Below are positions 27,562 through 41,397 of a DNA stretch of 44,520 bases, piece by piece. The notes beneath the pieces were generated by a model. That model was given only the letters and a program-made list of their open reading frames with translations, was not told the DNA's origin and did no database searches. The position numbers were made by a program, and so were the translations under genes. Position 1 is the first letter of the stretch; the number at the start of each line of letters is the position of its first letter. The stretch is from Phycisphaerales bacterium (GTDB lineage Bacteria; Planctomycetota; Phycisphaerae; Phycisphaerales; SM1A02), in assembly GCA_040401635.1 (NCBI GenBank), contig JBBAOD010000003.1:1-44520 (forward strand), read 5' to 3'.

Positions 27562-28677
27562 TTATGGAGTGATAGTGACGCGGCGGTAGAAGCCGTTGTT
27601 TTCTTGTGCAATCGCTTGCAGTGATTGCACATCGTTTTCGCTCGCGAACGCAATGGTGTTAATTTTTGTCAATAAACCCTTGTTTCCGGCGGCAATTTCA
27701 TCGCGGAGCATGCCGATGTCACTGCTGTCAAATTCACCGTCGGTCAACAGAAAGATCGCTTCTGGGTTCATTTGGAGTGCCATGCGCATGGAGTCCCATG
27801 TGCCACTTCCGCCCGCTGGGTCTGATTCATGTTGGGTGACCCAGCGAATCGCTGAATCACGATTCGCTGCAGTGGCAGCTAACCACTCGCCATTGGGCGG
27901 CATCGGTAGCGCATTGGTGTAGACCGTTCCCGACTTGTTTGGGCTTTCAACAAGTTTGGCCCCATTCGCGGGCGATACCCCGAACAGAATCACCGTGAAT
28001 TTGCAACCATCGCGGAGCGATTGAATGCTCTTGGCAAGTTCGGATTTGAGTAGTTTCTCGCGGCCATCTTCATTGCGCATGCTTGACGAGAAGTCCAAGA
28101 TGTAGACGATGCTCTTGGCATCAGTCGGAATCCCCATGAACTGTGTTCCGCCGCCCCCGCCTGCACCCGCACGACCTGCGCCGTCCTTGCCATCCTTGCG
28201 ACCAACAGCAGTCGCGGTCTGCGGAGGATCGATTGGATCATTGATATTCGGCAAAGTGAAGCCGAATTTCGGTAGTTCCTTGCTGTCACCACTCACCAAC
28301 GACTCGCCTTCGACGGCATTTGCAGTGGCGAGTGTGCCGGTGCGTTGACCGCGCGGTGCAGAGTCGGCGGTATCACCAACGGCACCATGGAGATTCCCGG
28401 AGGTACCGGCGCCTGGGCCGTCACCGGCAAGCGCACTGCCGCTGCCGACGCCCGCGCCGAAGCCGCTCCCTGAGCCTGTTCCGTAGCCGCCGCCAGCTGT
28501 TCCCGCAGCATCATCTCCGGGCGGATCGACCGGCGCTGCAAACAGAATTGCCGCGATCACCACACCAAGCGCCAGCACAAAGCAGCTAGCGATGGCAGCG
28601 ATCGCAGAGTTACGCTCGCGGCGGTCGCACGATGCGCCGGGGTGTGTTTGCCAGGGAAGCCAAGAGAGGAGTGACAT
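27562..28677 (-). CDS. Membrane-anchored periplasmic von Willebrand factor A (vWA) domain protein
   Basis: Short cytoplasmic N-terminus (CDRRERNS), TM AIAAIASCFVLALGVVIAAILFAA, Gly-rich linker, PKFGFTLP motif. The vWA domain has a MIDAS motif (VYILDFSSSM ... GTWDS ... IFLLTDGEFD). Confidence 0.85.
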   Translation of the reverse strand: MSLLSWLPWQTHPGASCDRRERNSAIAAIASCFVLALGVVIAAILFAAPVDPPGDDAAGTAGGGYGTGSGSGFGAGVGSGSALAGDGPGAGTSGNLHGAVGDTADSAPRGQRTGTLATANAVEGESLVSGDSKELPKFGFTLPNINDPIDPPQTATAVGRKDGKDGAGRAGAGGGGGTQFMGIPTDAKSIVYILDFSSSMRNEDGREKLLKSELAKSIQSLRDGCKFTVILFGVSPANGAKLVESPNKSGTVYTNALPMPPNGEWLAATAANRDSAIRWVTQHESDPAGGSGTWDSMRMALQMNPEAIFLLTDGEFDSSDIGMLRDEIAAGNKGLLTKINTIAFASENDVQSLQAIAQENNGFYRRVTITP

Positions 28678-28725
28678 GAAGTTCGTTGCTCTTGAGTGCT
28701 TGGAAGTAGGTATTGCTACAAGGAG

Positions 28726-29859
28726 TTACTTGATTTCAGTACGCATCGGCGGGGAACGATCGACCCGGATGATGAAGACTCGGGTGTTGGAAACGCGCAT
28801 CAGACCTCGCATGATCTTCATGAGTTCAGGTTGCTTTTCCTCTGCATCGGTAACGATGAATTCGATGTTCGGGCGCTTCTCGGTTCCGTGCTGCCGCTTC
28901 TTCATGTTGGCAATGACGAGTTGGTAGCCCGTTTCTGGAGAGTCTCCACCGCCATATGGCTCGACATCTAATACCTGCTGCACCATCCGCTGAATGTCTG
29001 TTGACTTCTTGGTCTTTAAGGTTGGTTTGATGATCACCTCGTTTGGCTCCCCCAAGAGGACATCACGAAAGGAAGTGACGGTGATCGAGCCGCCCTGCAA
29101 ACTATTGAAAATCTCAGCAATCACGCGGGCTACCGCGTCACGGGCGGGTGCCATGCTGCCAGTCGCGTCAAGATTGATACTGATTCGCGAGTCGGGCCAT
29201 GCTTGAACTACGTCGATGATCTGACCCTCGGTGGATCCTCCGCCGGCTGCTCCCGAACCGCCGCGCGTTGGGCGCCCGGTTGGCACACCGGGTGCTGCCA
29301 CACTGGGCGGTTTCGGCATGATCATCGGTGGTGGAGGTGGGGCATCAGGCTGCGTGAAGCCAAATTTCGGTGGTTCGATTTCTGGTCCGGCCGGCGCGAG
29401 TGCTACGGACTCTCCTTCTTCGGAATCACCTTCGGCCGCAGCCCCATCGGGGCTTCCGAGTGGCGGGGCTATTTCATCCGGACCGGCAGCGAGTTTTCCG
29501 CGCGTGCGGTCGTCTACCCCGGCTCCTGGGCCAGATCCATCAACACCGCTCCCAGTTCCACTGCCATTCCCGATACCTGCCCCGTCGCTGCGCCCGAGTC
29601 CGCCTCCTGATCCGCCACCACCGTATCCGCCACGGCTTCCAGCGAAGATCGCCGCTAGCACGACGCACAAACCCAACACAAAGGCGGCCACGATTCCAAG
29701 AATCGCGGACGCTCGCTCGCGTGGTTCGCACAGGGCTTCGTCCTCACCCGGTGTGTCGGAGTTCTCAGAATGAATCGCCACGGAATCAGCGTACGCCATG
29801 AACCCCCGAAGCCCAATGCCCCGTATTTCTCCTGCGGGTACCTTTTGACTTTGGACCAT
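28726..29859 (-). CDS. Membrane-anchored periplasmic vWA-like protein, paralogue of the downstream gene
   Basis: Same layout as the neighbour: CEPRERAS, TM AILGIVAAFVLGLCVVLAAIFAG, Gly-rich linker, PKFGFTQP motif. The vWA-like domain reads ISINLDATGSM ... YGGGDSPE ... EFIVTDAEE. An alternative start at 29799 (MAYAD) is possible. Confidence 0.75.
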   Translation of the reverse strand: MVQSQKVPAGEIRGIGLRGFMAYADSVAIHSENSDTPGEDEALCEPRERASAILGIVAAFVLGLCVVLAAIFAGSRGGYGGGGSGGGLGRSDGAGIGNGSGTGSGVDGSGPGAGVDDRTRGKLAAGPDEIAPPLGSPDGAAAEGDSEEGESVALAPAGPEIEPPKFGFTQPDAPPPPPMIMPKPPSVAAPGVPTGRPTRGGSGAAGGGSTEGQIIDVVQAWPDSRISINLDATGSMAPARDAVARVIAEIFNSLQGGSITVTSFRDVLLGEPNEVIIKPTLKTKKSTDIQRMVQQVLDVEPYGGGDSPETGYQLVIANMKKRQHGTEKRPNIEFIVTDAEEKQPELMKIMRGLMRVSNTRVFIIRVDRSPPMRTEIK

Positions 29860-29924
29860 GCGCTGTACCCGGGCAATATCAACCCGGAAATTGTTGATTC
29901 AGTCCCCGTACCCCGCGCCTGGCC

Positions 29925-31259
29925 TTGAAGGACACCACCGTGAGTAGGAAACTCAAATCCAGCGCCGTTTGCCCCCACTGCTGGCACCGATTCCGTCCGG
30001 ATCAAACGCTCTGGGTCGCTGCGCATCCTGAGTTGCTCGGCGATCGATTGCTCACGCCTGAAGATCCGGTGCGTTTCCTGCCGTCGCGCTTCACGCCAGC
30101 GGGCGAGGCGATCGACCCGTCTGGTTCCAAGACGCGCCGACTTGCATGCCCCAACTGTCACTTGGAGATTCCGCAACTGGTACTTGAGTGCCCGATGGTG
30201 ATCATGAGTTTGGCTGGCAGTCCATCAAGCGGTAAGAGCTATTTCTTGGCGAGCGCTATGTGGAAATTGCGCGAGGAACTCGCACGGCATTTCTCCGTAG
30301 CGTTTACGGACACGGATCCCGCGATGAACCGTGCAATCACCAACAACGAAGGTCAGCTCTTTCTCAACGAAGATCAGTCCGCGTCGGTTGCCATTGACAA
30401 GACGGAAATGGAAGGAGCGCAATACAACTCGGTGCAGTTTGATCCGGGTGTCGCCACCATGCTGGCGCATCCGTTCATCTTCACCGTGCGCCCTTCGCGC
30501 GATCATGTGAACGGACATGCACCGCATCGATTGACACAGCTATTTACGCTCTATGACAATGCTGGCGAGCACTTCTTTCCTGGCGCCGATACCGCGCGCG
30601 CGCCTGGAACGCAGCATCTAGCGAAGGCGCAGGTTCTGATGTTTGTCTTTGATCCGACGCAGGATGTTCGCTTTCGCCAGCGTCTTGCTGGTCTCAGCGG
30701 CGACCCACAATTGGCTCCGGGTGCAAAGACCACGCGCCAAGATCAATTGATTGTGGAAATGGCGCGCCGTGTGCGCATCCACGCAGGTCTTGCACCGCAG
30801 GATCGGGTTCCCAAGCCGCTGTTTGTCATTCTCTCCAAGAGCGACATTTGGGCCCCACTTCTGAAGGAAGAAGATGGAACACCAATGGACATCACCACGC
30901 CGCCCTACGCGCGCGAACGCGCCGGTCTGGGGCGAATGAGCATCAAGCGCGTCGATCGAACCAGTGATCGCATTCGTGCGTTGCTGTGTGAAGTAGCACC
31001 GGAACTCGTGTCCGCTGCCGAAGACGCGTTCGAGCGCGTCATCTTCATTCCAGTGAGCGCGATCGGAACGTCGCCGGTCCTGGATCCAGCGAGCGGTCTC
31101 CTCAAGGTTCCGGTAGCGCGCATCGCTCCGCGGTGGGTGACCGTTCCGTTCATCTACACACTTGCGCGTTGGTCGACGCACTTGGTCTCAAGCGACAAGA
31201 GCGAAGGCGACCCATCATTCGGAACACCGTCGGATTCCGCTGACATGGATCCATCGTGA
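29925..31259 (+). CDS. Zn-ribbon-fused TRAFAC-class P-loop GTPase
   Basis: Four-Cys ribbon CPHC...(58 aa)...CPNC. G1 is LAGSPSSGKS, G3 is LYDNAGE, G4 is ILSKSD and G5 is PVSAIG. TTG start at 29925, or GTG at 29940. Confidence 0.85.
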   Translation: MKDTTVSRKLKSSAVCPHCWHRFRPDQTLWVAAHPELLGDRLLTPEDPVRFLPSRFTPAGEAIDPSGSKTRRLACPNCHLEIPQLVLECPMVIMSLAGSPSSGKSYFLASAMWKLREELARHFSVAFTDTDPAMNRAITNNEGQLFLNEDQSASVAIDKTEMEGAQYNSVQFDPGVATMLAHPFIFTVRPSRDHVNGHAPHRLTQLFTLYDNAGEHFFPGADTARAPGTQHLAKAQVLMFVFDPTQDVRFRQRLAGLSGDPQLAPGAKTTRQDQLIVEMARRVRIHAGLAPQDRVPKPLFVILSKSDIWAPLLKEEDGTPMDITTPPYARERAGLGRMSIKRVDRTSDRIRALLCEVAPELVSAAEDAFERVIFIPVSAIGTSPVLDPASGLLKVPVARIAPRWVTVPFIYTLARWSTHLVSSDKSEGDPSFGTPSDSADMDPS

Positions 31260-31313
31260 CCGCGTTGAATTGATTGGCTGGCATTGAATGACTGCATTGA
31301 TTGACTCGCAACC

Positions 31314-33779
31314 ATGGCACTCGAACTCATCTACACATCTGCAGTACGCGGCCTCCGGGCTGGAACCAGCGGGTTCTGCACTGTGGCGATGACCAAGGGA
31401 TTGCCGCCGGCGTTGGTGCCGCGCCTGGAAGCGCTCGGCGGATATCGCACTGGTCCGTCGGGCAATGGCCCGAATGCGTATTGCTTCTGGCGTGTTGAGA
31501 CAGCGACGGGGATTGCGCATGTGCTTTCCATTGTTGGTCCTGCACCGCCGGACCACACGGCGCGTTCCAACAAGATCGCTACGTACTTGGTGCTCGCGCC
31601 GGATGAGTTGGTGCCCGCTGGACCCGCGTGGCTTCTTTCGCAACCCGCGCTTCTGCGTAGCACATGGAGCGGTGCGCCTGCTTGGATCGATGCTCCAGTG
31701 CGCGTGCCGACAACTCGTGATACCGGCCCGCGTCCATGCGCTGCATGGCAGGCAGCGAGTGGCGATGCGGGCTGGGCGGGCGTTCTGGCAAGTGCATTCC
31801 TTCGCGATCAAGCGCGGCCGATTCATGTGATTTACGGCGCCGCCATTGAGCCGCTGCCACTTGTTGAAGAAGCAATTCGACTCTTGCCGGAGTGGGCGCG
31901 TTGGCGCGCAACGTTCTCAACGTATTTCCTCCAACCAGTTGCTGGAACCCCGTGCGCGTGGCGATTCTGTCTTGATGGAACTCCAGCTACGGATGCTGCG
32001 CGGCAGTCCAAGGGGCTGGTCATTGACCTGACGCGCACCGCGGGGCCAGCGCCCGAATCACGATTCACACGTATGGCTCGGACGGGTATTGATGAGGAGG
32101 CGGTAGCGGCGCAAAGAGCGACGCGAGCAGCCGCGCGTGCCGCGGGAGCGGCTGCTGTTACCGGTGCCAGCGCTGCGCGGTCGAGCGATGCGCCCATTGA
32201 ATTGGAAATGGACTTTGCAGGAGATCAAGCCGGTACGCCGCGGCGCTTGGTGCGGGAGTTGGAATCTGAAGATCAAGGTGCGCCATCTGGCGAGCCAGCG
32301 CGCATGTCCATCAGTCCACCCATGTTGGCACTCGCCGCGGCTGGATTGACAGTGATACTTCTGGGTTTAATTTACCTGGTTAGTTTTACGACGGGCCAAA
32401 CTGCGGCACCAGCGGCACCAGCGATCCCCGCGATACCCGCGGCACCTGCGGTTGTCGAGAAGCCCAAGCGGGAGATGGAGCCGCTGAATTTGAAAGTGGA
32501 TGCTGCCGATGTCGGTACCACTCGGTCCGACGATGTCACAGCGGAGCCCGTCTCGAATGATGATGGAGCTCCGCAGGAGGAAGTCATAGAAGAAGCCCCG
32601 GGCATGCCAACGGATCCAGAAGCGTCGGCTTCGCCGCCTGAGCGCGTGCTCCCCGCTGTATTGCCTCCGCCCGTCGTGGCCCCAGTCGCGCCTGTCCCCA
32701 CGACACCAGTCATCACGCCGCTGGTATTGCCAACGATTGCGAAGTGGTCACCCACTTCCGCGTTCGAACGCGTCGCAACAGGCGCTGTGCAATTGCGGTT
32801 ACGTTTCGACGTTGGTGCAAAAAGTGGGTGGACTGTGAACTTTGTGCCTGCAAAGTCGCTCGCCGTGGCGGGTGTCAGTGTGCAGTCAAATGGTGGAATT
32901 GAATTCAGTGGGTCAGCCATGAGTGCGCGGGCTTCCATTAATGGAGCCGACCTCGTCATCGCTGGGTCCGCCGCTGGTCCTGTTCCTGAGGCGCTTCAGT
33001 TAGCGCTCCGTGATGCGAAGGATGTAAAGGACGCCAAGCTCGATCCGGTAGTCGTGCTGCAGCGGGCGCTTGAGCGTTGCACCGTTGAGGTGTTTGACAA
33101 GGGTGGCACATCGCTTGGGTTCGCACAGGTGCGGACAAAGTCAACGAAGTCGATCGGTATCGGAATGGAAAACAGCACAGCATTGGCAGATTTCGGCAAT
33201 AGCCGGCTCGATAGGCAAGTGACATCCCCTGCCGTTCCAGAGGCAATAACAGTTCGAGTTGATCCGATGCAAATTGAGAGCATGAACATCGCGGAAAGTT
33301 TGACTCTTTCTGTCAACCGTGCTGTGCAAAAGTCAGCAACGGTGTTCAGTGCAATGGCGCCGAGCGCTTCGGTTGTTGGGTTGCACATCACGGCATTGTC
33401 GAAGCAACAAGCCGAACTGAGCGCTCTCAAGAAGTCGTGCAATGTCGTGCTCGCGGTAGCGAAAGGCGGTACTCAGTCAGGTGGCTTTGAAGCAGACCTG
33501 CAGGCCGTACAGAACGCACTACTTCCGGAAGAGCAGAAGAAATTCCTCGTCGCTGGTGGTAAATCATCGCTGATATCAGACAGCAAGACCATGCGTGACA
33601 TGGTCGAATCAATCACTCCGCGTCTCGATAGTGAATTGAATAGCGTCAGTAAAAAACTGACGGAGGCCAACGCGGCGAGTAAGGCCAAGGCGAGCCCCGC
33701 GCAGTGGCGCATTCGCGTATCAAACGAGGACGGGATTGTGCTACTCGACTCCGCCATCACACCACGGGTGAGCAAATGA
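31314..33779 (+). CDS. Bitopic protein with a cytoplasmic GAP1-like (GTPase-associated) N-domain, one TM and a large periplasmic C-domain
   Basis: N-terminus MALELIYTSAVRGLRAGTSGFCTVAMTKGLP. TM MLALAAAGLTVILLGLIYLVSF near aa 335. Pro/Ala linker, then ~400 aa with no recognisable domain. Confidence 0.75.
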   Translation: MALELIYTSAVRGLRAGTSGFCTVAMTKGLPPALVPRLEALGGYRTGPSGNGPNAYCFWRVETATGIAHVLSIVGPAPPDHTARSNKIATYLVLAPDELVPAGPAWLLSQPALLRSTWSGAPAWIDAPVRVPTTRDTGPRPCAAWQAASGDAGWAGVLASAFLRDQARPIHVIYGAAIEPLPLVEEAIRLLPEWARWRATFSTYFLQPVAGTPCAWRFCLDGTPATDAARQSKGLVIDLTRTAGPAPESRFTRMARTGIDEEAVAAQRATRAAARAAGAAAVTGASAARSSDAPIELEMDFAGDQAGTPRRLVRELESEDQGAPSGEPARMSISPPMLALAAAGLTVILLGLIYLVSFTTGQTAAPAAPAIPAIPAAPAVVEKPKREMEPLNLKVDAADVGTTRSDDVTAEPVSNDDGAPQEEVIEEAPGMPTDPEASASPPERVLPAVLPPPVVAPVAPVPTTPVITPLVLPTIAKWSPTSAFERVATGAVQLRLRFDVGAKSGWTVNFVPAKSLAVAGVSVQSNGGIEFSGSAMSARASINGADLVIAGSAAGPVPEALQLALRDAKDVKDAKLDPVVVLQRALERCTVEVFDKGGTSLGFAQVRTKSTKSIGIGMENSTALADFGNSRLDRQVTSPAVPEAITVRVDPMQIESMNIAESLTLSVNRAVQKSATVFSAMAPSASVVGLHITALSKQQAELSALKKSCNVVLAVAKGGTQSGGFEADLQAVQNALLPEEQKKFLVAGGKSSLISDSKTMRDMVESITPRLDSELNSVSKKLTEANAASKAKASPAQWRIRVSNEDGIVLLDSAITPRVSK

Positions 33780-36673
33780 ACGCAGCCAAGCAAGAAATGT
33801 TCGAAACGGTTCGCTCGGTTGTCGCTGGAAGGCTTCGGGACGAAGCGCAAATCCGCGAGCTCGCGCATCGAATCTCGGAAGAATCAACCACGTTGCGCCG
33901 CCGCCTGGATCGTGCGGTTGGTTACGCCCGCGCCGGTCTTCGATTGGAAGCATGCGCGGAGGCGGAAGCGGAGCCCTCGGTGTTTGAACTCGCCGCAGCG
34001 TTTGACTCCGATGTCATGCGGCAGTGGCGGACGCTTTGCTCCAAGAACAAGTTGCCGCTGCAAGATGAAATTGCCAGTGACGCCATCGCAGAGATTGAAG
34101 AGGCAATCGCGCTTACTGCGCCGCTTCGCAGCAGACTTGCCCGGATGCGGCGGCTGGTACTTTCTGATGCATCTGCATGGAATAAGCTTGAAATACTGCG
34201 CGAATTGGTGTCACGCGACAGCGACAATCCGGCATGGCAAGAAGATCGCGCCGCTCTTGAGCCAGTGACCGCGAATGAGCTTGGCGATCGATTTGAGGCC
34301 GCCTTGGAGAAGGGCGCTCTTGACGACGCAGAGCTTTCCGTCACGCGGCTTGAAGATGGGAACTGGCATTGGTCGGGCGCAGCAAAGGTAGCCGCGCAGT
34401 TACGTGCACGGCTTAATCGCGCACTTGCCACACGAACAGCACTCGAAGCGCGGGCTGTCATCGCACTGCTCGATGAAGAGTGGGCTGCGGAGAATGAGTC
34501 GGGGGCACAGGCGGCGCTGGAATCATGGCGCGACCTTGAGCAGCGCATGCTCTCGTACGGCAGCGAAATGCCGGGAGATCTGCTTACGCGCGTGGATGAA
34601 GCCGAGGCGTGGCTCTCTGCTCGCCAGTCAGATGCAGCGGCGCACCGCGAAAATATTGACCGGGTTGCGGCGCTGGAACGGCTCGTACATGATGACGCTG
34701 TGACACTTCCCGGATTGCGTAAGACGCTTCGATCTGCGGAGCAGACCGTGGCGGGAGTCCCGGATGATCTGCGCGCGAGCGCTGAGCGCAAGATTGATTC
34801 CTTCGAACGTGCAGCACGAATGAAACGCTTGGCCTTGATTGCGGCGGTGGTGTTGGTTCTAATTGCTGGATCAGTGGGCACCGTCTATGTCTTGCGCCAG
34901 TCGGAGGAACTGAAGCGGATCGATGACATCGCCGCTGCGATTACCAGCAATGTTGACGCCGGCCGGCTTGTGGAGGCAGATCAACAGCTTGCGGAGGCAG
35001 AGAAAGAGCCCGCCGTTGCTGGGTCGCCGACGATTGCCGCAGCACGATCAAAGCTCACAGTAGCTCGTGCCGCCATCGCAGAGAAGCATCAGAAGTTCAC
35101 AAGCCTGATGGCGGAGGCTGGCGCCCCAGATTCTGAATCCGCCAAGCCTGATCGCATTGAGGAAGCAAAGCAATTTGCTCAGGGTGAGGAAGAGCAAGCG
35201 ATGGTTGCTAGCTGGATTCGTACACACGGCAATGCAACGGGCACCCGCCGCACCGATCGCATGCGCGAGGGAATGGCCCGCGCCAAAGCCACAACACGAG
35301 AGATCACAGCGGCTCAGCCAACCGGTGACGCATCCTGGGATGGAACATTCACTGCGTGGGAAAGTGCACTTGCTGATGTTCAGCGCCAGTATGGCGAGTT
35401 TGACGAAGTGACTCAAGAAGTCCGTGCGGGTCGTGCGAGTTTGATGGCGCAGCGCACAAAGACAGACACTGCGCGAGTAGAAACTGGCCGTGTCGGCAAA
35501 CTCGGTGGCCTTGGAGGTGCCGCAACTTCGCCACAGAAACTTGTGGACGCGTTGGCGGCATACATCAACGCACACGATGATTCGGCAGAAGCCAAAGACT
35601 TTAAGGCAGCCAAGGTCGCGCTTCCGACGTGGGAGGCAGTGACTGCGTGGTCCGCGGTTCAGCCGCGCCCCTCCGTATTACTTGCAGATCGACCGCAGGC
35701 AGAACGCGATGCGGTCGCCGCAGCAATTGATACGTATGTTCACGAATATCCATCCAGTCCGTACGGGGCCGAGTGCGAAGCGCTCGCGCCACTACTTGTT
35801 GCGGCGCCCGGATGGCGTGCAGCCCTCACGGAAAAACTAGAAAGTATGGAGGAGTTGACCTACTGGATGATCGAACGCAAAGACGGCTCGCGCTGGTACT
35901 GCAAAGCTGACCCACGATCATCTCCATTGCAAACGCAGGACGGTGTGGCCTTTAAGAGCGTCATGGTCTATCAGGGCAAGTCCAAGAAGACGGCGTTCGA
36001 GCGATTTGAGCAATTGCAGTTGAAGACAGAGGGGCCATCGCCACAAACGGTGTTTGGCAAGCAGTTGGCTGAGCTTATTGCAGACGATGAAAAATCAGTA
36101 AACGACATCGATGGAGCGTTCGACGCAATGACGGCGTTGCGCGAGAATGAAACGATCGATGGAGCCTTAGCCGCGCAATTGATGCAGGGATTGCTCGAGT
36201 CAATGGCGCCGCAAATGCCCGCAGTGATCCGTCCGCAGATAGAGGCGGCAGTCAAGCGCATTGCCAAAGAGAAGCCAGATGCCATTGATTGGATCAATCC
36301 GCGCGACGCAGACGCCCGCACTCGAAGCCGAGCTGCCCGTGCGGCAATGCGTGAGGCTGTACAACCAGAACTGTGGCGTAAGGCGTACGTGTCAGCAATG
36401 GCATCGGCATGCGCTCCGCTTGCAGTGGTGTACGAGCCTGCCGGTGTCTTTGTGAAATCTGCTGGTAAAGACGTATTTCTCTCAAATAAAAGCACGGTGG
36501 CTCCGGCGAATACGACACTGTGGATCGCCGAGCCGCCGATCGGCAGCAACCTTGGCATGATGATCAAACTGGGAACAGTGAAGCAGGGCGGGGTGGTTGA
36601 GTTTGATTCAGCATCTACGACAGTGACGCCGGGCAACATGGTCTTCACCATCAAACGCGGGGGCAAACCGTGA
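33776..36673 (+). CDS. Bitopic protein with a long cytoplasmic alpha-helical/coiled-coil region, one TM and a ~570-aa periplasmic domain
   Basis: Start at MNAAKQ (ATGA overlap with the upstream stop at 33776-33779). TM LALIAAVVLVLIAGSVGTVYVL. GTGA overlap with the downstream gene. No family recognised. Confidence 0.75.
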   Translation: MNAAKQEMFETVRSVVAGRLRDEAQIRELAHRISEESTTLRRRLDRAVGYARAGLRLEACAEAEAEPSVFELAAAFDSDVMRQWRTLCSKNKLPLQDEIASDAIAEIEEAIALTAPLRSRLARMRRLVLSDASAWNKLEILRELVSRDSDNPAWQEDRAALEPVTANELGDRFEAALEKGALDDAELSVTRLEDGNWHWSGAAKVAAQLRARLNRALATRTALEARAVIALLDEEWAAENESGAQAALESWRDLEQRMLSYGSEMPGDLLTRVDEAEAWLSARQSDAAAHRENIDRVAALERLVHDDAVTLPGLRKTLRSAEQTVAGVPDDLRASAERKIDSFERAARMKRLALIAAVVLVLIAGSVGTVYVLRQSEELKRIDDIAAAITSNVDAGRLVEADQQLAEAEKEPAVAGSPTIAAARSKLTVARAAIAEKHQKFTSLMAEAGAPDSESAKPDRIEEAKQFAQGEEEQAMVASWIRTHGNATGTRRTDRMREGMARAKATTREITAAQPTGDASWDGTFTAWESALADVQRQYGEFDEVTQEVRAGRASLMAQRTKTDTARVETGRVGKLGGLGGAATSPQKLVDALAAYINAHDDSAEAKDFKAAKVALPTWEAVTAWSAVQPRPSVLLADRPQAERDAVAAAIDTYVHEYPSSPYGAECEALAPLLVAAPGWRAALTEKLESMEELTYWMIERKDGSRWYCKADPRSSPLQTQDGVAFKSVMVYQGKSKKTAFERFEQLQLKTEGPSPQTVFGKQLAELIADDEKSVNDIDGAFDAMTALRENETIDGALAAQLMQGLLESMAPQMPAVIRPQIEAAVKRIAKEKPDAIDWINPRDADARTRSRAARAAMREAVQPELWRKAYVSAMASACAPLAVVYEPAGVFVKSAGKDVFLSNKSTVAPANTTLWIAEPPIGSNLGMMIKLGTVKQGGVVEFDSASTTVTPGNMVFTIKRGGKP

Positions 36674-37815
36674 CAGACGATTCCGAGTTTGATGACTTTG
36701 ACGGCCTCGATGCGGGAGGGCCCTCCGGTGCTTCCAAGCCCGGCCACGATGACCACGGTCGCTCGGCTACGGGACCCTGGTTTGTCCGATTCGCTGGAAG
36801 GCGCACCGGACCATTCGATGTGGAACGCCTGCGCATTTTGGCACGGCGCGGCGCACTCTCTCGCGTCCACGCGCTGAGTGTCGATGGCAAAGTGTGGTCC
36901 GCAGCCACCACGGTGCGAGCAGTCTTCAATGCAGACGGGTCCGTCGTTGCGTCGGGCGTGCGCGCGGTGGAGCTCGAAGAAGACCGGCCGGATTTCGGCG
37001 ATGAACTTCCCGGCACGGCGCCGACGGAATTCCCCCAGTTCACCTCGCGACGATTCATGGGCAGCGCTTTCGTTCGCCCGGTGGTGATCTGCGCACTCAT
37101 TCTTGCGACCATCATGTTGGCCTTGCCGACGTCGCGCGACGACGCAGGCGAACTTGCATGGTGGTGGCACGAGGGTGCATTGGGTATCGCCGTCCGCGGC
37201 CTGTGTGCGTTCGCGGTTCTGGGTGGTTGGGTAGTGGCGTTCCTTCCACCAGAGCCTGCCCGCGCTGCTTCAGTGTCTGCAGTCGCAGCAGTCCTTGCCG
37301 CAGCAGGCGCGTTGGCGCTGGCCCCGTGGGCGCCTTGGGCGCTGGTGATTGCACTTCTTGTGCCAATCGCTGCGCTCCTGGTTGCGCTCGACGCTGCGGG
37401 TTCTCCCGGGATACGCCCGATGGGAATTGTTGCTGTTTCGACGGCAGTCCTGATGGGTGTGGCATGCATTACCCTCGGCGTCTTCTGGTATTCACCATGG
37501 ACGCTCGCAGGAATGATTCTTGGAACAGTTGGCGCTGGCGGACTCGGTTGGGCCGGCGTGTCTTCGATACGGCACAAGGGACCAAGTGCCAAAGGAGTCT
37601 TCTCGAGTGGAATCATCGCTGCCACCGGATCCATGGCGTGCATCTTTGCGGCAGCATTTGCTGGGTTAAACAGCACAACACCGATGGTGGGTGCGCAGGG
37701 CGCCGTTTCTGCGTGCCTGGTCCTTGCCTTCTCAGCGCTCTCTTGGGCAGCCGTGCACGAGGCGGTTGAGAGTTCACACCTCCTACGCGGAACAGAAATC
37801 AACGAAAGCGCCTGA
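36670..37815 (+). CDS. GYF_2-domain protein fused to a polytopic membrane domain
   Basis: GPWFVRFAGRRTGPFDVERLRILARRGALSRVHALSVDGKVWSAATTV matches the bacterial GYF_2 pattern. About 6-7 hydrophobic helices follow. Confidence 0.75.
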   Translation: MTDDSEFDDFDGLDAGGPSGASKPGHDDHGRSATGPWFVRFAGRRTGPFDVERLRILARRGALSRVHALSVDGKVWSAATTVRAVFNADGSVVASGVRAVELEEDRPDFGDELPGTAPTEFPQFTSRRFMGSAFVRPVVICALILATIMLALPTSRDDAGELAWWWHEGALGIAVRGLCAFAVLGGWVVAFLPPEPARAASVSAVAAVLAAAGALALAPWAPWALVIALLVPIAALLVALDAAGSPGIRPMGIVAVSTAVLMGVACITLGVFWYSPWTLAGMILGTVGAGGLGWAGVSSIRHKGPSAKGVFSSGIIAATGSMACIFAAAFAGLNSTTPMVGAQGAVSACLVLAFSALSWAAVHEAVESSHLLRGTEINESA

Positions 37816-37845
37816 TACTCTCGGCGACAGAACACGGAGCAACCC

Positions 37846-38715
37846 ATGGCACAGCCAACTCAACCCGCCACAACCGTTACCACGCAACCGAAGCTCGATG
37901 CACGCGCCGGCGACATTGAATGCATGATCGGATTCTCGTCCGGCCGCTACACGGTGGCATCCGCACCGCTGTGGCTTGGTGTGGCAGCAGTCATGACCAT
38001 TCTGGTCGCACTCATCTTGGTGATTGTTGCACCCAACAGTTACTTGTTACTCATGATGAATCGTTGTTGGACCAATTGGGCGGTGGTGTTCTTTTCGTGG
38101 TGGTGCCTCGGCATTCTCTTCGCAAAGTGGATCAAGACCAGTATTCAACTGCGTGCGCTCCGCGCCGTGGACATTGTGCCGCGCCGCGGCGATTTCATCC
38201 TGAGTCCTGGTACTTCCGGCGACGTCTTGCGCCGCATCAAGGCGGTCGCGGAGCGCCCCAAGGATTTCCTGCTCTTTCGTCGAATCGATATGGCGCTGTC
38301 CAACCTTGGCAATATTGGAGAAGTGCGTGATGTTGGCGCGGTTCTTGAAAGTCAAGCGGATTCCGACGGGTCAAGCGTGGACTCGAGTTACACAGTCATT
38401 CGCTCGCTCATCTGGACCATTCCGATCCTTGGCTTCATTGGCACCGTCGTTGGTCTATCGCAGGCGATCGGTTCATTCACCGACGTTCTGACGCAGACTG
38501 GTAGTGATGCAGGCAGCATCAAGAGCAAACTCGGACCAGTCGTTGGTGGATTGGCTACTGCCTTTGAGACAACGCTTGTTGCACTCGTCGCCGCCGTCAT
38601 CATCCAGCTTCTTTCCACTTGGGTGTACAAGCGCGAAGAGGCGTTGCTCGACGGCATTACTGACTTCACCACTGAAAATGTGCTTTCGCGCCTGAAACTC
38701 ACCGATTGGCAGTGA
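37846..38715 (+). CDS. MotA/TolQ/ExbB-family proton channel subunit
   Basis: Two N-terminal plus two C-terminal TMs. Signature IWTIPILGFIGTVVGLSQAI and LGPVVGGLATAFETTLVALVAAVIIQLL. GGAG SD 8 nt upstream. Confidence 0.9.
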   Translation: MAQPTQPATTVTTQPKLDARAGDIECMIGFSSGRYTVASAPLWLGVAAVMTILVALILVIVAPNSYLLLMMNRCWTNWAVVFFSWWCLGILFAKWIKTSIQLRALRAVDIVPRRGDFILSPGTSGDVLRRIKAVAERPKDFLLFRRIDMALSNLGNIGEVRDVGAVLESQADSDGSSVDSSYTVIRSLIWTIPILGFIGTVVGLSQAIGSFTDVLTQTGSDAGSIKSKLGPVVGGLATAFETTLVALVAAVIIQLLSTWVYKREEALLDGITDFTTENVLSRLKLTDWQ

Positions 38716-38718
38716 CCC

Positions 38719-39600
38719 ATGGGACGACGCAAGAAGCGCGAAGAGGCTCCGCTGAGCCTGTTTTCCTTCCAAGACATCATGGCTTGCCTCACCGGCATCC
38801 TGATTCTGGTGGCGCTGCTCATTGCTATGGATGGACTGACGGACGAGATGGAGGCAACGCCCGGCAAGAGTGGCGCGCCGAATCCAGAGGTCGCAGCAGC
38901 GCGCGTGCCGGTACTGCGCGAACAGATTGCAATCTTGCAGCGCTCGATCGACGACCGTAAAGGCGGCCGCGATGTAACGAAGGCCGAAGTGGATCTTCTT
39001 GATTACAGCATCAAAGACAAGGCGATGTTGGTAGAGCGAGCGCGTAAGCGCCTGGCGGATGCTGATGCAGAAATGAAGCGCATCACTGAGGAGCAAGCGG
39101 CGGCAACTCAGCAGATTGAAGAACTTCGGGAGCGTATTGCTACTGCGAAGCGCTCTGCAGAGGCGCAAGTGTTGCGTGAGCGCGTGAAGTTCCGTCCAGG
39201 AATGAAGTACACAAAGGCGCCGGTATTCGTCGAACCAATGGCGACCGGAGTAGTGCTTGGCGAACTGGATGCAACTCGCACGCCAGTGCGTATTGCAGAC
39301 CTCAAAGATCCGAACGCCGATGCGCGCATTGTTGGCGCGCTCGCTAAGCGACTTCCTGATACCTCGTACATCGTGTTCGTCGTGCATGAGGATGCCATTC
39401 CGCGCTTTGAAACACTTCGTAATGCCTTGATTCGCCGTGGCTATGAGGTGGGCTGGCAATTGTGGGACGGCGCCACTGGCGGATTCCTGGATGGCGCCTC
39501 CGAATCCACGGGCCCGGTGCCGTTGACGCTGCCAGCGGTCGCCGACAAGCCGAGCGAGGCTGTGAAGTCAGGCAAGTCTCCCGCCGGAGGTGCACCATGA
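38719..39600 (+). CDS. Elongated ExbD/TolR-like stator partner with coiled-coil insert (293 aa)
   Basis: N-terminus MGRRKKREEAPLSLFSFQDIMACLTGILILVALLIAM: basic tail plus a TM with the conserved Asp. ~100-aa coiled coil. ExbD-like C-domain TSYIVFVVHEDAIPRFETLRNALIRRGYEVGWQL. Starts 3 nt after the MotA-like stop. Confidence 0.75.
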   Translation: MGRRKKREEAPLSLFSFQDIMACLTGILILVALLIAMDGLTDEMEATPGKSGAPNPEVAAARVPVLREQIAILQRSIDDRKGGRDVTKAEVDLLDYSIKDKAMLVERARKRLADADAEMKRITEEQAAATQQIEELRERIATAKRSAEAQVLRERVKFRPGMKYTKAPVFVEPMATGVVLGELDATRTPVRIADLKDPNADARIVGALAKRLPDTSYIVFVVHEDAIPRFETLRNALIRRGYEVGWQLWDGATGGFLDGASESTGPVPLTLPAVADKPSEAVKSGKSPAGGAP

Positions 39601-40415
39601 GTGCAGGCGGTCGACGTCGTCGGCGGGGCGGCCGCAAGAGTTCATCCCTTGCGGGTGATCCCTTGGATTTGTTCTTGGATGCCATTACCAATGCGCTTGG
39701 CGTCGTTATGTTCATTCTGCTGATGGTGGTGCTCTTTGGCCGGGCGAGTGATTCACAGTCAGATGCCTCGGCTCCAAGTGCAGCAGAGGTTCGCGAAGCG
39801 CGTGACCTTGAAGACCAACGCCAGCAACTGCAAGCCAAACTCGACGCACTGCCGCCCGCAGGCGACCCCGAGTTGAACGCCCGCTGGAATGCAGCCAACA
39901 AAGCGTTTCAGAAGTTAGAAGATGAATTAGTCGAACTTCTGAGCGAAGCCCAGCGCCGCGAAGCGGACGCGTCTGCCGCCGCCGCCAAACTTGCAGAGTC
40001 GCGCAAGGTGCTTGAGCCACTCACCGCGGAGGCATCGAAGAAATCAGAAAGCGCCACTCCGCCGAGTGGTTTCGTCCGTGTCAGCCGCTTCCAGCAGGAT
40101 CAGCGAAAATCGGTCATCCTGCTTCTCTCGGCAGGCAAGCTTTCGCGATTCCGCGCCACTGCAGAAACCAAGGAAATCAGTGCTCCCGCGAGCGGATTTG
40201 CGGTGACCGATGCGGTCAGTGCCGCCGAGGGCGTTAGCCGGGCGCTCGATGGGTTCCAGCCCGCCACTTACCGCGTCGAATTGCTGGTTTGGGAGGGTTC
40301 GTTCGCGCCGGGCAAGATGGTTGAGCAGGCACTCCTTGACTTGGGGTTCGATTCGAATCCCCTCCCTGTTCGTGCGGGCACGTCTGTTCAGTCCGGAACC
40401 GGCGGCGTGCAGTAG
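39597..40415 (+). CDS. Second elongated ExbD/TolR-like protein with coiled coil (272 aa)
   Basis: Start at MSAGGRRRRRGGRK (ATGA overlap at 39597-39600). DPLDLFLDAITNALGVVMFILLMVVLFG is a TM with Asp. Coiled coil, then C-domain YRVELLVWEGSFAPGKMVEQALLDLGFD. Confidence 0.7.
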   Translation: MSAGGRRRRRGGRKSSSLAGDPLDLFLDAITNALGVVMFILLMVVLFGRASDSQSDASAPSAAEVREARDLEDQRQQLQAKLDALPPAGDPELNARWNAANKAFQKLEDELVELLSEAQRREADASAAAAKLAESRKVLEPLTAEASKKSESATPPSGFVRVSRFQQDQRKSVILLLSAGKLSRFRATAETKEISAPASGFAVTDAVSAAEGVSRALDGFQPATYRVELLVWEGSFAPGKMVEQALLDLGFDSNPLPVRAGTSVQSGTGGVQ

Positions 40416-40425
40416 CGTCTGCAGC

Positions 40426-41397
40426 ATGCGCCTGTGCTCCCTTCTGTACCTTCCCTTGCTCGTCATCATGGTTGGCTGCGGCAAGCCCATTGTGGTGCAC
40501 GCCGTCACGGAGTCATCGCTCGATCCCATTGCAGACGTGCGCGTCTACCGACATCGCTTCGGGTTCTTCAATTTCTTTCCGGGCACAAAGTTTGTTCAGA
40601 CTGGACCAGACGGCCGCGCAGAAGTCAGTGTTGGTTCTGCCAATACCAATCTCACCATGCTGCGCGCCGGATTTGAGCCAGTCATCTTTGGCGTCTTTGA
40701 AACGCCATCAGTTGCTATCGCGCCGGATGTTGGCGGCTATGACCATGTGGTGATGTTCAAGGACATCAAGTCTGCCCCGAAGAACGAATACCAAGTGAAA
40801 CTGCGCCCGGTGCGTCGGGAGCCGATGCAACTCACCGTGCTCGACTCCGCAACGAACGCGCCGATCAGTGGCGCGGAAGTCTTTGGCGCAACATTCCTGT
40901 ATCTGCCACAGCCGGGCCTGGAGGCCGACTGGGGATTCCCACCACTGCAAGTTGCAAAGACTGACGCTTCCGGCAAAGTCACCATCGACCAGATTTCCGG
41001 CTTTCGCAACAGCATCACTATTCGACTTGTTGGGTACCAGAACGCCGTCATTGCCTTTGATGGACGAACAATCACTGGCCCGCGCGCCGTTGATGTTCCG
41101 TTTCGCAAATTGCAGTCCAAACAGATTGACTTCCTGGTGATTGATGCCAAGACCAAGGCGCCGGTGCAGGGCGCGGAAGTACGGCTGGGCGAATCACGCG
41201 ATGGATTGCCGCCGAACCCGAATGGTTGGACGAAAGTCGTCGGGGCGGATGGGCGCACCGGGCCGATGCCGGTGGCAGACATGTCACCGTTTCTCATCAG
41301 CGTGACCAGTAGCAACTACCAAGAGTGGCGAGGGGCGCCAGTATGGCGGGCGCTGACTGCGGGGCAGACCAAGAAGCTGGAGTTGCAGCGGAAGTAA
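40426..41397 (+). CDS. Lipoprotein with about 3 carboxypeptidase-regulatory-like (Ig/beta-sandwich) repeats
   Basis: Lipobox MRLCSLLYLPLLVIMVG/CGK. Repeated IVVHAVTESSLDPIADVRVY, LTVLDSATNAPISGAEVFG and FLVIDAKTKAPVQGAEVRLGE. Starts 10 nt after the upstream stop. Confidence 0.7.
   Translation: MRLCSLLYLPLLVIMVGCGKPIVVHAVTESSLDPIADVRVYRHRFGFFNFFPGTKFVQTGPDGRAEVSVGSANTNLTMLRAGFEPVIFGVFETPSVAIAPDVGGYDHVVMFKDIKSAPKNEYQVKLRPVRREPMQLTVLDSATNAPISGAEVFGATFLYLPQPGLEADWGFPPLQVAKTDASGKVTIDQISGFRNSITIRLVGYQNAVIAFDGRTITGPRAVDVPFRKLQSKQIDFLVIDAKTKAPVQGAEVRLGESRDGLPPNPNGWTKVVGADGRTGPMPVADMSPFLISVTSSNYQEWRGAPVWRALTAGQTKKLELQRK

Follow-up and report, generated by a model that had tools for sequence, protein, structure and literature searches.

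A gene cluster conserved in the Planctomycetes-Verrucomicrobia-Lentisphaerae group joins a DO-GTPase2/GAP1 pair to an ExbB/TolQ-type motor gene and may encode a GTPase-gated envelope machine

Two groups of genes already in the literature come close to the locus studied here. Kaur et al. (2020) defined the GAP1-N2 DO-GTPase systems, predicted them to be conflict systems, and remarked on a GYF protein and a TM-rich partner in planctomycetes, while in Firmicutes and Actinobacteria the GTPase/GAP1 pair has entirely different partners (PMC7159879). A 2025 MBE paper reported that, in PVC species without TonB or TolA, inner membrane (IM)-tethered vWA proteins adjoin one tolQ-like and two tolR-like genes; these vWA proteins were proposed to replace TonB and TolA as motor-driven force transducers, and an SHLS/His motif was described as motor-docking (PMC12204202). 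In addition, the Agl-Glt apparatus uses ZnR and GYF modules to couple its GTPase with a TolQR-like motor, and the ZnR, GYF and MglA-binding functions of GltJ are documented (PMC11135422). A reading of the present DNA made from the sequence alone (hereafter the sequence-only reading) had drawn an analogy to Agl-Glt, which is accurate as a common domain vocabulary. It had also called the cluster undescribed; this is half right, because PMC7159879 and PMC12204202 each covered one half, and the two halves are joined in neither. What is new is the combination of a membrane-tethered GTPase switch, a TolQ/ExbB-type motor and anchored vWA proteins in one cluster.

The window, i.e. the whole stretch of 44,520 nt that was analysed, contains all ten ORFs of the sequence-only reading at the same coordinates (Table 1). 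Following the 65-nt divergent gap, the operon junctions are 54 nt, an ATGA overlap, a GTGA overlap, 30 nt, 3 nt, an ATGA overlap and 10 nt, and the overlapping genes are translationally coupled; the junctions had been listed correctly except for the first operon gap, given as 55 nt. A hydrophobicity scan found one TM segment each in vWA-a, vWA-b, the GAP1 protein, the 965-aa protein, XD1 and XD2, about seven in the GYF protein and four in the motor subunit, in agreement with the topologies predicted before. Two vWA domains, GAP1-N2 with GAP1-M, and MotA_ExbB were confirmed by Pfam in the window proteins themselves; DO-GTPase2 and GYF were confirmed through orthologues only.

Table 1. Features of the cluster, with positions in the window.
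Feature	Position	Strand	Basis and remarks
vWA-a	27562..28677	-	Pfam VWA_3 6.8e-9; TM residues 28-46
vWA-b	28726..29859	-	Pfam VWA_4 4.4e-9; TM residues 53-71
Divergent intergenic region, 65 nt	29860..29924	.	Separates vWA-b from GTPase operon; coordinates and sequence
Zn-ribbon P-loop GTPase, soluble, DO-GTPase2 family	29925..31259	+	Pfam, orthologues, alignment
GAP1 protein, bitopic, 821 aa	31314..33779	+	Pfam GAP1-N2 1.3e-16, GAP1-M 2.3e-14
965-aa orphan protein, bitopic	33776..36673	+	TM residues 352-370 (hydrophobicity scan)
GYF protein	36670..37815	+	N-terminal cytoplasmic GYF domain, then ~7 TM segments
Motor (proton-channel) subunit, ExbB/TolQ-type	37846..38715	+	Pfam MotA_ExbB 2.1e-9
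XD1	38719..39600	+	Basic N-terminus, TM with invariant Asp19 (FSFQD); family alignment
XD2	39597..40415	+	XD1 paralogue, same architecture; conserved Asp D28 (LFLD)
Lipoprotein, lipobox MVGC	40426..41397	+	CarboxypepD_reg-like beta-sandwich repeats; Pfam CarboxypepD_reg 3e-6, below cut-off

The motor subunit has an extra N-terminal TM segment and the conserved motifs PxLGFIGTVxGL and GLxTAF(E/D)TT, which bear Thr and acidic residues within the membrane. Its AF2 model is confident (pLDDT 90.8), and Foldseek matches it best to ExbB and TolQ (target-normalised TM-scores 0.5-0.69, against 0.3-0.4 for MotA/PomA). The stator had been described as MotA/ExbB-type; the subunit resembles ExbB/TolQ and not flagellar MotA. 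The subfamily is distinct: 171 representatives fall below 1e-30 in a 50%-clustered library, and the best 80 genomic loci are all of this type.

XD1 and XD2, judging by their residues, carry the TM Asp expected of ExbD/TolR/MotB-type partners, and this Asp is near-invariant (XD1, 71/71 orthologues; XD2, 70/71). The two families are related by hhalign (probability 99.7%, E 5e-26), and two XD genes are present in 70/70 loci having sufficient downstream sequence. Beyond the TM segment, XD1 is predicted to have a coiled-coil stalk of ~130 aa that leads to an alpha/beta domain of ~110 aa at the C-terminus. The earlier term "ExbD-like" is based on their gene position, topology and TM Asp. In the C-terminal domain, Pfam, PDB profile searches and hhalign detected no ExbD/TolR similarity; a fold search, run on a poor single-sequence model and hence carrying no weight, gave no ExbD/TolR match either.

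The GTPase contains CPxC...CPxC, a Walker A motif (G98-K104), Walker B (D211-G214-E215) and K305-x-D307, and the Zn-ribbon cysteines, Walker A, DxxGE and KxD are invariant in the orthologue alignment. The window copy scores 25.1 bits against DO-GTPase2, under the 27-bit Pfam cut-off, and 26/27 orthologues match the family. The gene directly downstream encodes the GAP1 protein. Its GAP1-N2 and GAP1-M domains are predicted to be cytoplasmic, with one TM segment (residues 338-356) and a Pro-rich linker connecting them to ~350 periplasmic aa; the protein has no relative in the PDB. For the 965-aa protein, a helical cytoplasmic domain of ~350 aa, the TM segment and a periplasmic part of ~595 aa are predicted; neither the window copy nor 26 orthologues matched a Pfam or PDB family. 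In the case of the GYF protein, the window copy reaches only 0.007 against GYF_2 in Pfam, 14/19 orthologues match it (best 4e-28), and the GP...W core is conserved in the family. The periplasmic parts are poorly conserved: the 965-aa protein has a mean pairwise identity of 18%, and GAP1 one of 25%.

The cluster is real and conserved across the Planctomycetes-Verrucomicrobia-Lentisphaerae group, recurring in at least 80 loci of Planctomycetota, Verrucomicrobiota and Lentisphaerota; among the matches listed by the locus scan, 575 of the 599 stretches fitting the pattern proved to be relatives. From locus to locus, either the genes follow the order GTPase, GAP1, 965-aa protein, GYF protein, motor subunit and two Asp partners, or whole blocks of them have changed places, as in L026, L043, L067 and L068. 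Among the 40 long-flank loci, the GTPase and GAP1 genes were each found in 38, the 965-aa protein in 39, the GYF protein in 31 and both XD genes in all 40. Pairwise identities of six components correlate over 41 loci (r = 0.77-0.91, a value taken without a housekeeping-gene control). The genes thus constitute one conserved, co-inherited unit, as had been supposed. A chance adjacency of an ordinary ExbBD/TolQR set and an unrelated GTPase/GAP1 pair could be imagined from the two long-flank loci (L025 and L034) in which no GTPase gene lies within 10 kb of the motor module, and from the different partners of the pair in Firmicutes and Actinobacteria. However, both units occur together in 38/40 long-flank loci in three phyla, even after block permutation, so that synteny already contradicts such an adjacency. 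Together with the coupled overlaps in the window, the distinctness of the motor subfamily and profile searches in which no TonB, TolA or ExbD family match was found in the cluster, this makes the explanation extremely improbable; nor do the genes look like an ordinary TonB-ExbBD set.

We give a probability of roughly 55% to the reading that the locus encodes one IM and periplasmic multi-protein machine that is GTPase-gated, proton-powered and transduces force in the envelope. By analogy with ExbBD, TolQR and MotAB, the power unit would be an ExbB/TolQ-type channel, probably a pentamer, around an XD1-XD2 heterodimer (5:2), in which the TM aspartates take up and release protons and the proton-motive force is converted into rotation or a power stroke; the stalks of ~130 residues would put the XD C-terminal domains deep in the periplasm. 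The control unit would comprise the soluble Zn-ribbon GTPase and its cognate bitopic GAP1-N2/M protein, with the GAP1, 965-aa and GYF proteins tethering the nucleotide switch at the membrane next to the motor, so that GTP binding or hydrolysis could gate motor assembly or activity. The output may lie in the large periplasmic domains and the IM-anchored vWA/MIDAS proteins, and the latter could dock on the motor like TonB/TolA and then pull or bind an outer-envelope ligand.

The main rival is a biological-conflict system (anti-phage or abortive-infection), in which the periplasmic domains would serve to detect an invader and the GTPase/GAP1 pair to fix a threshold, and the ExbB-like/XD unit would be a Zorya-like envelope sensor or a depolarising proton-leak effector. 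The GTPase and GAP1 families were defined as conflict-system cores (PMC7159879), and the motor subunit has weak ZorA matches in PADLOC and NCBIfam (E 8e-4 to 0.05); in its remoter relatives (33-40% identity), a Zn-ribbon and long helical tails recall ZorA. The low periplasmic conservation and the tandem duplicate systems of some genomes (L054, L063, L072), also typical of diversifying defence loci, are consistent with this rival. However, ZorB, ZorC, ZorD and ZorE gave no matches, PADLOC found no other defence matches, and Pfam, NCBIfam and PADLOC revealed no nuclease, protease, pore-forming or other recognisable effector domain in the ten proteins. The gene order kept in three phyla and identities that drop roughly along the organisms' taxonomic labels suggest vertical inheritance rather than island-like spread. 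Meanwhile, the cluster is flanked by housekeeping genes, its GC content and composition are uniform, and no mobility genes occur in the locus context; with its recurrence, the locus looks chromosomal and lineage-wide, i.e. lineage-core as the sequence-only reading had it. We regard a conflict function as rather unlikely; the machine's role is probably a housekeeping one, in the envelope, in adhesion or in uptake, and not one in immunity.

The two vWA proteins are paralogues, as previously assumed (BLASTP 1e-14, mainly TM, Gly-rich linker and PKFGFT region). The predicted build of vWA-a is N-in, with a single TM segment, a Gly-rich linker, the PKFGFT motif and, in the periplasm, a vWA domain whose MIDAS is of the DxSxS type (LDFSSSM); the vWA domain of vWA-b has diverged (MIDAS variant DATGS). 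Linked vWA genes occur in 13/40 long-flank loci, so that their standing as a constant part of the cluster had been overstated. In several Planctomycetia loci the vWA protein itself bears GYF at its N-terminus or has a cytoplasmic tail rich in Pro, which supports a link between vWA and GYF modules in the machine. An energised uptake or surface-foraging system, a GTPase-regulated alternative to TonB in which the motor and vWA transducers would power the import or handling of large substrates across the outer membrane, would be a functional sub-case of the force-transducing machine; we list it apart, as it predicts nutrient-dependent phenotypes. The vWA proteins beside TolQR-like genes in species without TonB or TolA (PMC12204202) point to it, as does the lack of TonB/TolA family matches in the cluster; the mucin-utilisation locus of Akkermansia may also include related periplasmic-complex genes. 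Against it, no gene for a TonB-dependent receptor or other outer-membrane transporter lies in the cluster or in the core that the 80 loci share, the vWA linkage is partial, and neither window vWA protein has the SHLS/His motif in its TM helix; the last two points also count against the force-transducing machine as a whole. We consider uptake as such unlikely, more so than a conflict function.

The beta-sandwich lipoprotein had been counted as a component of the machine. Its gene is found in close relatives only (L001-L007, L039) and in 2/40 long-flank loci; it is lineage-specific and therefore an accessory rather than a core part.

All ten ORFs that the sequence-only reading had assigned to the cluster are present in the window as described, and its list of gene junctions matches the sequence save for one value, the distance from the GTPase stop to the GAP1 start, which is 54 nt and had been given as 55 nt. 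The membrane topologies it had claimed were reproduced by a hydrophobicity scan. The two vWA proteins (vWA-a and vWA-b), GAP1 (338-356), the 965-aa protein (352-370) and the two Asp-bearing partners of the motor subunit (XD1 and XD2) each have a single TM segment, about seven TM segments follow the GYF domain of the GYF protein, and four hydrophobic segments were seen in the motor subunit. GC content is level throughout the cluster region and its flanks, the flanking genes are ordinary (a Na+/H+ exchanger, a xylose-isomerase-like TIM barrel and Asd), and no mobility genes were found within the window; the earlier description of housekeeping surroundings is thus borne out. A promoter and terminator scan of the locus gave a result at chance level. 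Between the GTPase and GAP1 genes, the spacer has ATTGA four times within about 45 nt (TTGAATTGATTGGCTGGCATTGAATGACTGCATTGATTGAC), which may be a regulatory or translational element or may have arisen by chance.

Features of the window, with gene junctions in the cluster and the occurrence of each component among the 40 long-flank homologous loci
Feature	Coordinates (strand)	Junction with the next gene	Long-flank loci with the component
Three ORFs upstream of the giant secretin	1252-3351, 3358-4845, 4842-5948
Giant secretin	5945-15715 (+)
ThuA-DUF6677 fusion	23114-24643 (+)
Ten-gene cluster	27562-41397
vWA-a	27562-28677 (-)		13/40 (a vWA gene)
vWA-b	28726-29859 (-)	65-nt divergent gap	13/40 (a vWA gene)
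GTPase	from 29925 (+)	54 nt	38/40
GTPase-GAP1 spacer	31260-31313
GAP1 (821 aa)	(+)	ATGA overlap	38/40
965-aa protein	(+)	GTGA overlap	39/40
GYF protein	(+)	30 nt	31/40
Motor subunit	(+)	3 nt
XD1	(+)	ATGA overlap	40/40 (both XD genes)
XD2	(+)	10 nt	40/40 (both XD genes)
Lipoprotein	(+)		2/40

One genome per GTDB species was scanned with the motor alignment as query, and at least 599 stretches were matched, at least 575 of which encode a motor relative. The conservation figures rest on the best 80 of these at least 575 loci, which according to their record labels come from Planctomycetota (Phycisphaerae and Planctomycetia), Verrucomicrobiota and Lentisphaerota including Victivallis, i.e., from the Planctomycetes-Verrucomicrobia-Lentisphaerae (PVC) group. 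Iterated HMMs built from the ten window proteins were run against all ORFs of the 80 loci, and components were counted in the 40 loci with long flanks (at least 9 kb upstream and at least 4 kb downstream). The usual gene order is GTPase, GAP1, 965-aa protein, GYF protein, motor, XD, XD, and both XD genes lie immediately 3' of the motor gene wherever at least 2.5 kb of downstream sequence is available (70 of 70 loci). In three loci (L026, L043 and L068) the motor-XD-XD block stands 5' of the GTPase-GAP1-965 block, and in L067 the two blocks are divergent. The linkage persists despite this rearrangement of blocks, suggesting a functional unit. Meanwhile, a vWA gene is found directly 3' of XD2, or between the motor gene and XD1, in many loci. 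The sequence-only interpretation is upheld in part: the machine is conserved, the linkage of the vWA genes, though present in the window, is partial, and the beta-sandwich lipoprotein, which had been counted as a member, does not belong to the core.

The pairwise identities of six components across 41 loci are correlated at r = 0.77-0.91 (values obtained without a housekeeping-gene control), which is consistent with co-inheritance. Identity to the window declines in parallel with the taxonomic labels of the records, from 83-96% within the freshwater clade to which the window belongs, through about 60% in Phycisphaerae-like MAGs outside that clade, to about 40-45% for Planctomycetia, Verrucomicrobiota and Lentisphaerota. 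Taken together, the genes of the cluster very probably form a single co-functioning system.

Several loci show peculiarities of their own. L001, with a motor identity of 82%, retains the operon and has a phage-type integrase gene (7486-8499) just 3' of the lipoprotein gene, followed by G6PD, three other genes and then Asd about 5 kb downstream of the operon, whereas in the window Asd comes directly after the cluster. In L054, L063 and L072, which come from uncultured-planctomycete and Thermoguttaceae MAGs of gut or rumen origin by isolate names, the system or its GTPase-GAP1-965 block is present as two adjacent copies. The locus of Neorhodopirellula pilleata (L025) has motor-XD-XD and a GYF gene and lacks GTPase, GAP1 and 965-aa genes over the 10 kb upstream, and that of a Rhodopirellula sp. 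(L077) has motor-XD-XD, with none of these three genes within an upstream flank of about 3.9 kb; the control module may be located elsewhere in these genomes or may have been lost in the lineage. In addition, the MAG records of nine clearly PVC-type loci (L003, L005, L008, L009, L040, L044, L051, L060 and L073) bear odd organism labels, including Chitinophaga sp., Heliomicrobium sp., Desulfamplus sp., Nitrospiraceae and Singulisphaera sp. GP187 'isolates', probably owing to mis-binning or mislabelling in public records.

The motor subunit (289 aa) matches MotA_ExbB in Pfam (2.1e-9), and belongs to a distinct subfamily of about 290 aa, of which 171 representatives score below 1e-30 in a library clustered at 50% identity. 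It was modelled with AlphaFold2 from a 34-sequence alignment (mean pLDDT 90.8), and the model was compared with the PDB by Foldseek. The top matches were ExbB 5sv0 and TolQ 9ddm, 8vlw and 9avi, with a probability of 1.00 and target-normalised TM-scores of 0.5-0.69, and the flagellar proteins MotA and PomA reached TM-scores of merely 0.3-0.4. Since ExbB and TolQ rank first and MotA and PomA lower, the MotA/ExbB-type channel noted previously can be specified as ExbB/TolQ-type, with one extra N-terminal hydrophobic helix. The motifs PxLGFIGTVxGL and GLxTAF(E/D)TT, which correspond to the Thr-lined pore helices of ExbB/TolQ, are invariant or nearly so in the alignment. The conserved Thr and Glu residues T200, E241, T242 and T243 would form a ring facing the Asp residues of the partners. 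A sister family of motor relatives at 33-34% identity (P0183, P0204, P0238 and P0266; 450-950 aa) has a ZorA-like layout with an N-terminal zinc ribbon, a MotA_ExbB core and a long apolipoprotein-like helical tail.

Similarity between XD1 and XD2 is undetectable by BLASTP. When profiles of 71 orthologues each were compared by hhalign, 271 columns were aligned with a probability of 99.7% (E = 5e-26), indicating that the two proteins are paralogues of one architecture, which consists of a basic N-terminus, an Asp-bearing TM helix, a coiled coil of about 130 residues and a C-terminal alpha/beta domain of about 110 residues. The TM Asp (D19 in XD1 and D28 in XD2) lies in the motif FxFQD in XD1-type proteins and LLLD in XD2-type proteins, and is kept in 71/71 and 70/71 sequences, respectively. 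The Asp, the gene position and the topology appear as expected for partners of the ExbD/TolR/MotB type, and to this extent the term "ExbD-like" used in the sequence-only reading suits the membrane part. For the periplasmic part the term is provisional: Pfam, PDB profile and hhalign comparisons gave no ExbD/TolR match. Pfam and NCBIfam searches with the window XD1 and XD2 returned coiled-coil noise only, and in a PDB profile search with the full-length alignment (A2) the coiled coils swamped the results. With the 59 C-terminal domains alone (A3), the PDB profile search gave a marginal TOPRIM match (0.004), Pfam gave neither PF02472 nor any other match, and hhalign found no significant alignment to TolR or ExbD of E. 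coli. The predicted order of secondary-structure elements is compatible with ExbD/TolR. The single-sequence AF2 model of XD1 is poor (pLDDT 55.9), so that the fold search made with it, which returned ribosomal uL18-like folds and no ExbD/TolR, has no meaning.

For the GTPase and the GYF protein, family assignments that are weak in the window become firm in the orthologues. The window GTPase scores 25.1 bits against DO-GTPase2 in Pfam, just under the 27-bit cut-off, and 26 of 27 orthologues match this family; the window GYF protein matches GYF_2 with E = 0.007 only, and 14 of 19 orthologues match it, the best at 4e-28, with the canonical GP...W core present in the alignment. The GTPase alignment has an invariant zinc-ribbon site of four Cys (C16-P17-x-C19 and C75-P76-x-C78), an invariant or nearly invariant Walker A (G98 to K104) and K305-x-D307 motif, and a Walker B of the DxxGE type (YDNAGE) in which D211 and G214 are invariant and E215 occurs in at least 90% of sequences. 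By these features the GTPase looks catalytically competent. The 821-aa protein exceeds the Pfam cut-offs for both GAP1-N2 (PF20013, 1.3e-16) and GAP1-M (PF20014, 2.3e-14). No relatives of the GTPase or GAP1 were found among solved structures, and no Pfam or PDB-profile family was found for the 965-aa protein with the window protein and 26 orthologues.

In Pfam, vWA-a matches VWA_3 (6.8e-9) and vWA-b matches VWA_4 (4.4e-9). The MIDAS motif is DxSxS (LDFSSSM) in vWA-a and a DATGS variant in vWA-b, and the paralogy of the two proteins lies chiefly in the TM helix, the Gly-rich linker and a PKFGFT segment. The lipoprotein has a lipobox, and its Pfam matches to CarboxypepD_reg are sub-threshold. 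In four loci of Planctomycetia the vWA protein carries a GYF domain at its N-terminus (L021:12579-13859, L031:10636-11922, L060:10807-12201 and L080:10774-12027), and in L015, L017, L019 and L022 its cytoplasmic N-terminus is proline-rich. The motor-linked vWA protein of L015 also carries a Zn-ribbon. GYF domains usually take proline-rich stretches as their ligands. The GYF domain of GltJ binds a proline-rich sequence of AglZ (PMC11135422). These architectures suggest that GYF-proline contacts could link the cytoplasmic side of the machine to the vWA proteins; the N-termini of vWA-a and vWA-b in the window are not proline-rich, so this link is drawn from the relatives.

Each half of the cluster has a counterpart in the literature. 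DO-GTPases (with the Walker B DxxGE) and GAP1 were defined by Kaur, Burroughs, Iyer and Aravind in 2020 and interpreted as conflict systems, in which GAP1 often carries fused C-terminal TM segments and, in planctomycetes, the coupled protein has GYF domains fused to a TM-rich region (PMC7159879). The present cluster shares with the GAP1-N2 systems a Zn-ribbon DO-GTPase with the Walker B Glu, a GAP1 with N2 and M domains directly downstream of it and fused to a C-terminal TM segment, and the planctomycete GYF and TM-rich partner; vWA genes are also nearby in some of the published themes. It differs in having one four-Cys site where two ZnRs are usual, and a single GTPase gene where the family name refers to a pair. 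No fn3 match indicating an FNIII-repeat protein was obtained at E up to 1 in the ten proteins or in 27 orthologues of the 965-aa protein, although the periplasmic regions may contain a cryptic Ig-like fold. In addition, the PVC version is syntenic over three phyla and resembles a core locus, whereas a diversifying conflict island was described, and the words MotA, ExbB, TolQ, ExbD and proton do not occur in the text of that study (PMC7159879).

The origin of the GTPase/GAP1 family as a conflict system is one reason to consider that the cluster serves defence, the main rival explanation; another is a certain likeness to Zorya, which has a MotA/ExbB-family subunit with an Asp-bearing partner. 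The channel core of the motor gives weak ZorA matches (best E-value 8e-4, against curated cut-offs of hundreds of bits), and PADLOC recognised ZorA in the window motor no further than that. The zinc ribbon and long helical tails of the more distant motor relatives, the tandem duplicate systems in some genomes and the fast evolution of the periplasmic parts could also be read in this way. However, the motor lacks the long C-terminal tail of ZorA, no matches to ZorB, ZorC, ZorD or ZorE were found in the cluster, and none of the ten proteins has a conflict-type effector domain by Pfam, NCBIfam and PADLOC. Assignment to Zorya was rejected, as weak ZorA matches occur without the other Zor components. 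Given also the synteny over three phyla and the housekeeping context devoid of mobile elements, we consider a defence system rather unlikely.

The other half resembles gene sets found in Planctomycetes and Verrucomicrobia, where a gene for an inner-membrane (IM)-tethered vWA protein stands beside a tolQ-like gene and two heterologous tolR-like genes; the vWA proteins were proposed as possible motor-driven force transducers, and the study states that their function and any phenotype of deletion are not known (PMC12204202, Mol Biol Evol 2025). The window shares this arrangement and the order of TM helix, disordered linker and vWA domain, as well as the occurrence in the two groups. Upstream of the tolQ-like gene, a TPR gene was reported where the window has the GYF and TM protein, and no TPR match was found in orthologues of the GYF-slot or 965-aa proteins. 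The SHLS/His motif reported for the vWA TM helix (PMC12204202) is absent from the window, since neither vWA TM helix contains His; nor is His consistent in the orthologues. The two gene sets are likely identical, and the published gene-neighbourhood view, in which a GTPase is not mentioned, may have been too narrow to reach it. A full-text literature search combining both halves returned only PMC7159879, PMC12204202 and Myxococcus work. Within the literature searched, the claim of an undescribed system thus holds for the combined machine and not for its halves, which comparative genomics had noted separately.

Compared with ExbB-ExbD-TonB and TolQ-TolR-TolA, the cluster has in common the MotA_ExbB domain, a motor model that fits ExbB and TolQ structures best, and adjacent single-TM partners with a basic N-terminus and a near-invariant TM Asp. 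On the other hand, its motor has an additional N-terminal TM segment, its partners are two distinct proteins where ExbD and TolR are single genes, and in each XD a coiled coil of about 130 aa is inserted and the C-terminal domain shows no detectable ExbD/TolR similarity. No matches to TonB_C, TonB, TolA, Pal, TolB or TonB-dependent receptors were found among the cluster proteins. An ordinary Ton/Tol set was rejected, because ExbD, TonB and TolA matches are all absent. That such a set has merely come to lie next to unrelated genes is hardly credible, being contradicted by the synteny.

The Agl-Glt apparatus with MglA (PMC11135422) offers a fair analogy in domain vocabulary, as had been proposed from the sequence: the shared terms are a proton motor resembling TolQR, a GTPase switch in the cytoplasm, ZnR and GYF domains as adaptors on membrane proteins, bitopic proteins that span both inner membrane and periplasm, and an adhesin with a vWA domain. 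The parts are wired differently. The GTPase of the cluster is a DO-GTPase2 of the TRAFAC class in place of the Ras-like MglA, and MglB is missing; the ZnR is on the GTPase and the GYF domain on the polytopic protein (or, in some lineages, on the vWA protein), whereas both are on the TonB-like GltJ in Agl-Glt; and the vWA proteins are anchored in the inner membrane, in contrast to an outer-membrane lipoprotein adhesin. No Glt-type families, including outer-membrane components, were recognised in the cluster, and membership in Agl-Glt was rejected on account of the different GTPase family and the missing Glt components.

The cluster encodes an ExbB/TolQ-type channel, two paralogous Asp-bearing partners, a membrane-anchored GAP1 with its GTPase, two further membrane proteins with large cytoplasmic and periplasmic parts, and IM-anchored MIDAS vWA proteins, and the linkage of these genes is tight and conserved. 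Proton-driven 5:2 motors power flagella, TonB-dependent uptake, Tol-Pal, gliding and Zorya defence. The cluster appears to be an envelope motor system of this 5:2 type with a new control module, DO-GTPase/GAP1. We favour a GTPase-gated, force-transducing housekeeping machine, with a probability of about 0.55. A more specific version is put forward tentatively, namely that the GAP1-N2 DO-GTPase "conflict system" of PVC bacteria might control a trans-envelope machine that is inherited vertically and has a housekeeping role. In it, an ExbB/TolQ-type proton motor gated by the GTPase, its axle a heterodimer extended by coiled coils, would drive the IM-anchored vWA/MIDAS proteins, and the whole would be a PVC counterpart of Tol-Pal, Ton or Agl-Glt serving an envelope process peculiar to PVC bacteria, for example handling of the outer membrane, adhesion to surfaces or gliding, uptake of macromolecules, or division. 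Energised uptake as the function, a sub-case of the favoured machine, draws in part on the mucin-utilisation locus (MUL) of Akkermansia, which may include related genes, and is quite improbable in our estimation.

By analogy with ExbBD, TolQR and MotAB, five channel subunits may surround a heterodimer of XD1 and XD2, whose two TM Asp residues would bring about rotation or a power stroke through cycles of protonation. With a length of about 19 nm if fully helical, the coiled-coil stalks would place the C-terminal domains far into the periplasm, where they could act as anchor or lever; candidate output or sensor elements are the vWA proteins together with the periplasmic domains of GAP1 and of the 965-aa protein. 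The GTPase cycle, acting through GAP1-N2/M and perhaps the ZnR and GYF adaptors, would set where and when the motor engages, much as MglA-GTP acts through the ZnR, linker and GYF of GltJ in Myxococcus (PMC11135422).

In the literature searched, a P-loop GTPase of the DO-GTPase family wired into a proton-driven 5:2 motor has not been described before. If the two modules co-operate, a large family of predicted "conflict systems" would be reassigned to envelope mechanics, at least in PVC bacteria, and Agl-Glt/MglA would be joined by another, independent example of a TolQR-like motor that a nucleotide switch gates via ZnR/GYF. Genetic systems exist in Planctopirus, Gemmata and Akkermansia, which makes the hypothesis directly testable, and the system is widespread. 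Under the same condition, PVC bacteria, of whose envelope biology little is understood, would gain a candidate force-transducing apparatus; some of them, e.g., Tichowtungia, have no recognisable TolA or TonB (PMC12204202).

Two further genes of the window deserve mention. A giant secretin of 3256 aa has 25 stretches matching Secretin_N (E 5.5e-271) and ends in a Secretin domain; the three ORFs upstream of it are co-directional, with overlapping or abutting ends, have no Pfam matches, and probably form an operon. The other gene, nearer to the cluster, encodes a 509-aa protein in which a ThuA (trehalose utilisation) domain is fused to DUF6677.
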